Positions 15,701 to 18,700 of a stretch of 32,175 nt of DNA are shown here, piece by piece. This stretch comes from a virus. Taxonomy: Duplodnaviria > Heunggongvirae > Uroviricota > Caudoviricetes. The DNA lies in IMG/VR virus record IMGVR_UViG_2617270948_000002, positions 1 to 32,175 of that record; one strand, written 5' to 3'. The position numbers were made by a program. Positions within the stretch are counted from its first letter, which is position 1. Each line of letters opens with the position of its first letter.

Positions 15701-18700
15701 ACAGATTGCCGTGGCGACGGGGACCGCCGGAACGGGCGCTCCGGTTCTCACCGGCGCGGTGGCTGCAATGGCGGATGAGCCGTTTGATTATATCGGTCTG
15801 CCGTTCAACGACACGGCCTCCGTTAACACGCTGGTGACCGAGATGAACGATACCAGCGGTCGCTGGAGCTATGCGCGTCAGCTGTATGGTCATGTGTATA
15901 CGGCAAAGACCGGCACACTGTCAGAACTGGTGAACGCAGGTGACCAGTTTAACCAGCAGCACATCACCCTGGCGGGGTACGAAAAAGAGACCCAGACGCC
16001 TGCCGACGAGCTGGCGGCAAGCCGTACCGCCCGCGCAGCGGTGTTTATCCGCAACGATCCGGCACGTCCCACGCAGACCGGTGAGCTGGTGGGTATGCTG
16101 CCTGCGCCGAAGGGGAAACGGTTCACGATGACCGAGCAGCAGACCCTGCTGTCTCATGGCGTGGCAACGGCGTATGTCGAAAGCGGGGTGCTGCGCATTC
16201 AGCGTGATGTCACCACGTACAGGAAAAATTCTTACGGGGTTGCGGATAACAGCTACCTCGACAGCGAGACGCTGCATACCAGTGTGTATGTACTGCGCAA
16301 ACTGAAATCCGTCATTACCAGTAAGTACGGGCGTCACAAGCTTGCCAGCGACGGTACCCGCTTTGGTCCCGGTCAGGCGATTGTCACCCCGGCGGTAATC
16401 AAAGGGGAACTGCTGGCAACCTACCGTCAGCTTGAGCGTGCGGGGATCGTGGAAAACTACGAACTGTTTAAGCAGTACCTGGTTGTGGAGCGTGATGCCA
16501 GCGATCCGAACCGCCTGAACACGCTGTTCCCGCCTGACTATGTTAACCAGTTGCGTGTTTTTGCCGTGGTTAACCAGTTCCGTCTTCAGTATTCAGAGGA
16601 GTCTGCATAATGGCCCGTATCGGGGGAACCTGTTATTTCAAAATTGACGGTCAGCAGCTATCGCTGACCGGCGGCATTGAGGTGCCCATGAACAGGACGG
16701 TCAATGATGACATCATCGGCCTTGACGGTTCAGTGGACCGCAAGGAAACTCACCGTGCGCCTTATGTCAAAGGGACCTTCAAGGTGCCGAAGAATTTTCC
16801 GGTGAGTAAAATCACCTCGTCTGATGAGATGACCATCACTGCCGAGCTGGCGAACGGTCAGGTCTATGTATTGTCGTCCGCCTGGCTGCACGGAGAAGCG
16901 AACCATAATGCCGAAGAAGGCACGGTTGATCTTGAGTTCCACGGTGAAGAAGGGGATTACCAGTAATGAAAGAGCTTGAGTTAAAGAAACCGATTATCGC
17001 TCATGGTGAGACACTCTCCGTACTGGAGTTTGATGAACCCACCGGGAAGGATGTCCGCGAGCTGGGGTATCCCTACCAGATGAATCAGGATGAGTCCGTC
17101 AGACTTCTGGCGCATGTGGTGTCGAAATACATTGTGCGGCTGGCGAAAGTGCCGCAAAGCTCTGTCGACCAGATGTCTCCGGCAGACCTGAATGCAGCGG
17201 CGTGGCTTGTGGCTGGGTTTTTCCTCCAGGCCTGACGGCTGAATACCTCACTGATCGCTTCTTTGACTGCGCCAGCTACTGGCGCATTAATCCCTTCGAA
17301 TTGCTGAATATGCCGATCAGTGAAATTCCCTTGCTGGTCAGTCAGGCAAACAGGATAGAGCAGGAGAAACGCACACATGGCTGAATTTGAGCTTAAGGCG
17401 TTGATCACCGGTGTCGACAGGCTTTCTCCCGCGCTGTCGAAAATGCAAAAGAAAATCCGGGGATTTAAACGCCAGGCGGAAGAAGCGTCACAGGGTGGGC
17501 TGGCGCTTGGTGGCGGACTGACAGCGGGGCTGACGCTTTCCCTGAAATCTTATGCCGATCAGGAAAACGCCGCTACCGGGCTGAAAGTCGCCATGATGGA
17601 TGCGAACGGCGAGGTTGGAAAGAGCTTTCAGGACATCAATAAACTGGCTATTGGCCTGGGTAACCAGCTACCCGGTACAACGGCTGATTTCCAGAACATG
17701 ATGCAGATGCTGGTGCGTCAGGGGATCCCGGCAGAAAACATTCTGGGTGGTGTGGGTAAAGCGACAGCTTATCTTGCGGTACAACTGAAAAAAACACCGG
17801 AAGCGGCTGCCGAGTTTGCAGCAAAGATGCAGGATGCTACCGGAACGGCCTCAGAAGACATGATGGGGCTGTTCGACACAATTCAGAAGGCGTTTTATCT
17901 GGGCGTTGACGACACCAACATGCTGTCATTCTTCACTAAAACCAGCTCTGTTCTGAAGATGGTGAATAAGGACGGTCTTCAGGCTGCACAGAGTCTTGCC
18001 CCCATCAGTGTCATGATGGATCAGATGGGGATGAACGGGGAGTCGGCAGGTAATGCCCTGCGAAAAGTTATCCAGTCCGGATTAAGCGTTAAGAAAATCA
18101 GGGACGTCAATAAAATCATGGCCCGCCAGAAACTCGGGGTACAGCTCGATTTTACTGATGGCAAAGGGAGTTTTAGCGGTCTTGATAACATGTTTAAGCA
18201 ACTGGCAAAGCTGCGAAAACTGACCGACGTTAAGCGAACAGGTGTACTTAAGGCAATATTTGGTGATGATGCCGAAACCCTTCAGGTGGTCAATGCTCTG
18301 ATCGATAAAGGAAAGGATGGTTACGATCAGATCCAGCAGAAGATGAATAAACAGGCCAGCCTGAATAAACGTGTTCAGGCACAGCTTGGTACGCTGTCCA
18401 ACCTGTGGGAGGCAATGACGGGGACCGCAACTAACGGTTTTGCAGCTATTGGCGGCGCATTTTCTGGTGACGCTAAAAATATCACGCAATGGCTGGGGGA
18501 GTTGGGGGAAAAATTCACGAAGTTTGCGGATGAAAATCCCCGGGTTATTCGCGGCGTCGTCGGGCTTGCTGCCGGTCTTGCGATTCTGAAACTGGGATTG
18601 ATGGGCGTGGGCAGTGCCATCAGTATTGTCAGCAGGATCATGTCGATGACGCCGATTGGCATGATTGCGACGGCGATTGCTCTGGCTGCGGGATTAATTA

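Follow-up and report, generated by a model that had tools for sequence, protein, structure and literature searches.

The tail assembly chaperone gene and its overlapping frame

The stretch of DNA analysed here, hereafter the window, comprises 32,175 nt of a tailed-phage sequence (Caudoviricetes; IMG/VR record IMGVR_UViG_2617270948_000002, positions 1–32,175), and the element in question is a putative programmed −1 frameshift site in its tail assembly chaperone gene. The gene is part of a plus-strand run of tail genes that consists of the tail sheath gene (15114–16610; Pfam PF04984, PF17482 and PF17481), the tail tube gene (16610–16966; PF10618, E 2.4e-33), the chaperone open reading frame (ORF; 16966–17235), an apparent gap of 141 nt, the tape measure protein (TMP) gene (17377–19212; PF10145, E 6e-27, with AGGAG at 17362–17366), and then the genes for a DNA-circulation protein and the baseplate. 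By these Pfam matches the chaperone gene is located immediately upstream of the TMP gene and downstream of the tube gene, the position that is characteristic of G/GT-type frameshift genes. An earlier note on this DNA had placed an 89-aa chaperone ORF at 16966–17235, and these coordinates hold. The protein (C terminus ...AAWLVAGFFLQA*) matches Pfam PF10109, Phage_TAC_7, the P2 gpE / Mu gp41 family, over residues 4–86 (E=2.4e-15; 56.7 bits against a cut-off of 25), and is the short product equivalent to P2 gpE and lambda gpG.

The −1 frame overlapping the chaperone gene had been listed as an ORF at 17202–17384 that runs to the TMP start; the frame is actually open from 17094 to 17384, and its stop codon (TGA, 17382–17384) falls 7 nt past the TMP ATG at 17377 (ATGGCTGA). 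The GTG at 17202 is the earliest possible start codon of the −1 ORF, and no Shine–Dalgarno (SD) sequence is present upstream of it. In the window the +1 frame runs for just 2 codons past the chaperone stop, which rules out frameshifting of the +1/−2 kind seen in Mu.

Within the overlap, gggttttt is present at 17215–17222 as reported in the earlier note, and the sole in-phase slippery motif is the heptamer G_TTT_TTC at 17217–17223 (zero-frame codons GG[G TTT TTC]); no other slip sites were found in the overlap. A −1 slip on TTT_TTC in silico gives the product ...WLVAGFF|PPGLTAEYL..., in agreement with the translation proposed previously. The predicted fusion is 139 aa long and spans 16966–17384 (join of 16966–17223 and 17223–17384), with the junction peptide ...AAAWLVAGFFPPGLTAEYLTDR, and its −1-frame extension, a T- or E′-like domain, occupies 17223–17384 (53 codons plus the TGA). 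When the in-silico fusion was used as a tblastn query, 23 phage records matched it in two pieces, with approximately 100% of the query covered. The more diverse relatives were drawn from this comparison, a search with the chaperone alignment having given near-identical loci only.

It is highly probable that a −1 ribosomal frameshift of the P2 E/E+E′ type (G/GT type) yields a short and a long tail chaperone from this locus. Most ribosomes would translate 16966–17235 and release the 89-aa chaperone, and a minority would slip back 1 nt with tRNA-Phe in both the P site (UUU, 17218–17220) and the A site (UUC, 17221–17223). The tandem tRNA-Phe would re-pair from UUU_UUC to GUU_UUU, and translation would continue in the −1 frame from 17223 to 17384 to give the 139-aa fusion. 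Re-pairing in the A site would be fully standard (UUU); the P-site tRNA would have to tolerate a G·A mismatch at the first position. The C-terminal domain of the fusion would be the counterpart of P2 E′ and lambda T. If the two chaperones act as they do in lambda and P2, their common N-terminal part would coat the TMP, and the extra domain would recruit the tube protein. We infer the frameshifting itself, its efficiency and the functions of both products from the features described below.

The second frame in related phages

This layout recurs in SfV, SfII, vB_EcoM-689R6, an E. coli prophage, Edwardsiella phage EPP-1, Pantoea phage AH07, SfIV, phiP27, ST64B and Yersinia phage YeP1, and further out in Burkholderia phage BgVeeders33, Pseudomonas phages DVM-2008 and PG1, Bordetella phage PBb002 and P2. 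Relatives that share the architecture together with an in-phase T-run heptamer have chaperone identities down to 27–45%. The −1-frame peptides align (11 lineages in the alignment) around a core motif, A-x-[FY]-[WF]-[RKH]-x-[NDSP]-P-x-E, and a C-terminal A-x-R-I, and the conserved peptide starts exactly at the slip site. Within the extension, the window and EPP-1 differ by 9, 6 and 26 substitutions at −1-frame codon positions 1, 2 and 3, an excess at the third position. This pattern of substitutions, taken with an architecture and in-phase heptamer that recur in relatives, indicates an arrangement that is more than chance. A second frame lacking conservation in relatives had been named in the earlier note as grounds for abandoning a conserved G/GT-type frameshift; the frame is clearly conserved, and the proposal is supported by this as well as by position, frame and the absence of an independent start.

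The −1 ORF has been called a separate gene elsewhere. In vB_EcoM-689R6 (L002 1093–1275) it is treated as an independent ‘hypothetical protein’, and it has its own PHROG, 32181, of ‘unknown function’, which the window's extension matches with an E value of 4.6e-42. Such a gene would have to be initiated at GTG 17202 to give 17202–17384 as a small protein of its own. The GTG has no SD-like sequence before it, however, the start is not conserved, and the conserved peptide begins at the slip site itself. In 8 of 13 lineages the −1 frame has no ATG, GTG or TTG upstream of the conserved domain, and in the lineages that do have a start codon no SD-like sequence precedes it; thus the conserved domain can be reached only from the chaperone ORF. 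Independent initiation of the −1 ORF was therefore rejected and is effectively excluded, and its annotation as a separate gene is an artefact of an un-modelled frameshift.

A profile of the extension aligns with P2 E′ in hhalign (probability 86%, E 5e-6). The 53-aa domain of the window gave no hit to Pfam PF06528 (Phage_P2_GpE) at E≤10, the corresponding scores being 76 bits for P2 and 15.8 bits for Bordetella PBb002. The extension thus appears to be remotely homologous to P2 E′, and membership of the PF06528 family is not established.

Paraburkholderia phage IPK (L216 556–1100) is the sole relative without the T-run and reads GGC TTC TTC. Its conserved −1-frame domain has only a 10-nt overlap with the chaperone ORF (GGGCGCGTAA), and the record is marked UNVERIFIED. 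IPK may use another slip site, or the record may contain an error.

The fusion is not annotated in the records of SfV, SfII, EPP-1, AH07, SfIV, phiP27, ST64B and YeP1, nor in one E. coli PGAP record (strain GE3). Those inspected from SfV, SfII, SfI, SfIV and related phages, and from E. coli by PGAP, show the short chaperone alone, the 141-nt ‘gap’ or a hypothetical −1 ORF. The main value of the present findings accordingly lies in annotation, as such records should carry a ribosomal-slippage join like that of P2 E+E′.

The slippery heptamer and its rare G allele

At the position homologous to the window's heptamer, 12 of the 13 other lineages, P2 included, have T_TTT_TTC, T_TTT_TTT or T_TTT_TTG in phase, IPK being the exception. 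The codon before the T-run ends in T and encodes variously Gly, Arg, Asn, Ser, Pro or Asp. As this codon ends in T whatever the residue, the first base of the heptamer is conserved at the nucleotide level. SfV, SfII, SfI and hundreds of E. coli prophages have the textbook T_TTT_TTC. The window reads GCT GGG TTT TTC, where the G at 17217 turns GGT into GGG, leaves the Gly of the chaperone frame unchanged and removes the canonical first base of the heptamer. The earlier note was right that the slippery sequence is not a textbook X_XXY_YYZ: the in-frame heptamer G_TTT_TTC departs from it in that the first X is not T, and re-pairing is still possible at two of three positions in the P site and three of three in the A site. 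This departure is a derived single-base T→G substitution in this copy and not a property of the phage group. It is silent in the protein and alters only the recoding signal, and so amounts to a small natural experiment. Other in-phase X_XXY_YYZ heptamers occur in long ORFs of the window at 10170–10179 (GGGAAAT/AAATTTT, portal gene), 19905–19911 (AAATTTC, DNA-circulation gene) and 23653–23659 (AAAAAAT, baseplate).

Relatives with the site all keep an uninterrupted run of T6–T7, which would also suit transcriptional slippage. Insertion of one extra U by RNA polymerase in the T-run would give an identical fusion protein, and sequence data cannot separate the two mechanisms. Efficient slippage by bacterial RNA polymerase involves runs of about 9 in the characterised cases, and the T runs of 5–7 at this site are shorter than that. 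The run is, moreover, always in X_XXY_YYZ phase, a constancy that may also come from the conserved Phe-Phe/Leu residues. Additionally, for the homologous event in P2 both the annotation and the literature give a translational mechanism (PMC3091744). Transcriptional slippage is accordingly a very improbable source of the fusion.

The G allele is rare. A 33-mer centred on the site was compared with 5,426 complete E. coli genomes; the T form matched at 744 places in 696 genomes, and the G form gave 0 matches. With an 81-mer the T form had 510 exact matches in complete E. coli genomes and the G form none. Both of the two copies in S. flexneri SFBU0723 carry T and neither carries G. Among IMG/VR viral contigs the G allele was found in 2 (L013 and L014) and the T allele in at least 120, and a scan of metagenome contigs, made for the G allele only, found it in none. 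The near-absence of G from hundreds of prophage copies is population-level evidence of selection on the first base of the heptamer, and fits a mildly deleterious mutation.

The G of the two IMG/VR contigs (L013 3326–3347, minus strand; L014 1735–1756, plus strand) is the same as that at window position 17217, yet the three copies represent three different local haplotypes. They differ from each other by 16–20 single-nucleotide polymorphisms (SNPs) per kb, and each lies only 1–4 SNPs per kb from its nearest T-allele neighbour. Flanking tail genes are intact in all three. The idea that G arose once and then spread was rejected on these distances, and would need a shared tract of less than approximately 120 nt. 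Distinct haplotypes, each near a T neighbour, instead imply independent events at the GG/TTTTTT junction, whether true mutations or miscalls. The recurrence may reflect a mutational hotspot created by dislocation at the edge of the run, gene conversion over a very short tract, or repeated miscalling of the homopolymer. L013 and L014 also have approximately 660 extra bases between the end of the TMP gene and the DNA-circulation gene (L013 690–1353; L014 3729–4392), compared with only about 40 nt in the window (19203–19245).

If position 17217 was miscalled in sequencing or assembly, its G would be an artefact and the true sequence the canonical T_TTT_TTC. The change from G2T6 to G3T5 preserves length and is typical of a miscall at a homopolymer boundary, and its appearance on three unrelated haplotypes is as a recurrent error would give. 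Recurrent dislocation mutagenesis at run junctions predicts the same pattern, however, and a common systematic error is not what the 5,426 finished E. coli genomes and the metagenome scan indicate, as G is absent from both. We regard an artefact as unlikely.

The rarity of G, together with the small number of SNPs between its carriers and their T neighbours, also fits young mutations that are selected against, and so bears on a different explanation: that T→G killed the signal, leaving a tail-defective copy that makes only the short chaperone and in which the site is a decaying remnant. Very few G copies are present in IMG/VR and none among the 744 E. coli matches, and in E. coli reporters without stimulators (below) tetramer and heptamer are both near background. 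The surrounding tail genes of the window are nevertheless intact and collinear with the genome record of phage SfII. Measurements on the same two alleles, read by the same E. coli tRNA-Phe pair, also argue for a working signal. Bock et al. (2019, Nat Commun 10:4598; PMC6787027, Supplementary Tables 1 and 4), using a reconstituted E. coli system with dnaX stimulators, obtained frameshifting of 22.0% for U_UUU_UUC, 12.3% for G_UUU_UUC, 8.3% for A_UUU_UUC, 6.0% for C_UUU_UUC and 1.7% for the non-slippery G_UUC_UUC, values whose absolute size is not transferable to the window since the context is heterologous, in vitro and provided with strong stimulators (an SD-like element and a stem-loop). The penalty for the change from U·A to G·A at P1 is 2.7 kJ/mol (PMC6787027). 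Of the three bases that can replace U at heptamer position 1, G does the least damage; G_UUU_UUC keeps approximately 56% of the activity of U_UUU_UUC and is approximately 7-fold above the non-slippery control. By these ratios the G allele should keep about half of the ancestral efficiency, and by analogy the site in the window probably still works at about that level. Loss of the signal has, in our estimate, a small chance of being the correct account.

Several points weigh against the P2-type frameshift as the account of this locus. Both products are predictions from sequence, and the heptamer in this copy is non-canonical. G is essentially absent from approximately 700 prophage copies in E. 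coli, as a deleterious mutation would be, so that function may be substantially impaired here, and the base call itself could be a sequencing error at a homopolymer junction. The efficiencies of Bock et al. were obtained in vitro and in the dnaX context. Without stimulators, E. coli reporters with UUUUUUC and UUUC gave 0.12% and 0.17%, respectively, both near background, and a strong pseudoknot raised these values to 7.6% and 1.8% (PMC4066793, supplement); the absolute efficiency at the window's site is thus not predictable. RNAalifold over 12 lineages found no conserved downstream structure (0 pairs), and folds of the single sequence give only one hairpin close to the slip site, a weak one of 4 bp, 5 nt downstream. 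P2 likewise has no conserved downstream structure (PMC3091744).

An 8-bp GC-rich hairpin at 17268–17286 on the plus strand (GCGCCAGC-UAC-UGGCGC) was considered as a stimulator and rejected, as it lies 45 nt past the slip site, which is too far. This hairpin lies inside the −1-frame extension, where it covers the codons of the conserved CASYWRI; EPP-1 and AH07 also have it, and more distant relatives do not. No Rfam match was found in the frameshift region.

A further suggestion is that the recurrent T→G change is a natural tuning allele, roughly halving the short:long chaperone ratio and arising repeatedly at a GG/T6 hotspot. We consider this improbable. If true, the allele may persist in some lysogens because a serotype-converting prophage that is kept for its gtr genes can afford, or even benefit from, lower tail output, and the alleles would provide a natural series for gauging the dependence of myophage tail assembly on the G:GT-type ratio.

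Genomic setting and comparison with known systems

From approximately 7.3 kb on, the window is collinear with phage SfII in one piece of 24.9 kb at 98.2% identity, and the source region is, judged by its sequence, a prophage of an SfII/SfV-like temperate myophage with a Mu-like contractile-tail module. A serotype-conversion module is located on the minus strand at 26102–31926, throughout which SfII is collinear. It comprises gtrA-like (31564–31926) and gtrB-like (30644–31567) genes, a GtrII glucosyltransferase gene (29180–30640; PF14264) and an acyltransferase-3 gene (26102–27151), and a DDE transposase ORF (28005–28790) sits inside it. Two Rfam matches above the gathering score, the isrK Hfq-binding RNA (956–1028, plus strand; 60.7 bits) and the C4 antisense RNA (1053–1138, plus strand; 72.7 bits), belong to the early/regulatory part of the prophage and have no bearing on the frameshift site.

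The mechanism proposed for the chaperone gene is already well known, and the understanding of frameshifting is unchanged by these findings. The locus is a new, under-annotated member of the group, and its only unusual element is a rare, apparently recurrent variant of the heptamer, which probably weakens the signal and does not abolish it.

The closest known system is P2 E/E+E′. It shares with the window the PF10109 N-terminal part, the position between the tube and TMP genes, the −1 direction and a T-run heptamer 4–7 codons before the stop. The products are of similar size (89 and 139 aa in the window; 91 and 142 aa for P2 E and E+E′), and the end of the fusion ORF lies in both 7 nt past the start of the TMP gene (gene T in P2). 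The P2 record NC_001895 annotates a −1 frameshift at TTTTTTG, the homologous site, and the frameshift has been published (Christie 2002 and Xu 2004, as cited in PMC3091744). The heptamers differ, being T_TTT_TTG in P2, T_TTT_TTC in SfV-type phages and G_TTT_TTC in the window copy. Unlike that of P2, the extension in the window falls below the PF06528 threshold, and the tail module is otherwise Mu-like (sheath, tube and DNA-circulation protein) rather than P2-like.

Lambda gpG/gpGT is a siphovirus system with the heptamer G_GGA_AAG, read by tRNA-Gly and tRNA-Lys, and is likened to the window by its logic, not by sequence similarity. Its −1 frameshift was reportedly described by Levin, Hendrix and Casjens in 1993 and by Xu, Hendrix and Duda in 2004, 2013 and 2014. 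The shared logic is that a chaperone gene directly upstream of the TMP gene also yields a rare form lengthened by frameshifting, the ratio of the two being important; in lambda a G:GT ratio of approximately 30:1 matters for tail assembly (PMC5009743). The scarcity of the G allele among hundreds of prophage copies agrees with such a dependence.

The earlier note had suggested comparison with the equivalents in SfV and Mu. SfV bears out the reading, with the same layout and T_TTT_TTC. Mu does not, although its tail module is homologous to that of the window (sheath L, tube M, TMP gp42 and DNA-circulation protein N) and the Pfam family name of the window's chaperone covers ‘E, or 41’, and so Mu gp41 too. 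The −1 frame of Mu is shut after 12 codons; it is the +1/−2 frame that is used, being open for 43 codons at CGG GGG CGA, and a −2 frameshift is employed (PMC5009743). The proper comparator for the window is therefore P2 E/E+E′, with its −1 shift at T_TTT_TTG, and not Mu: a P2 arrangement inside a Mu-like tail module.

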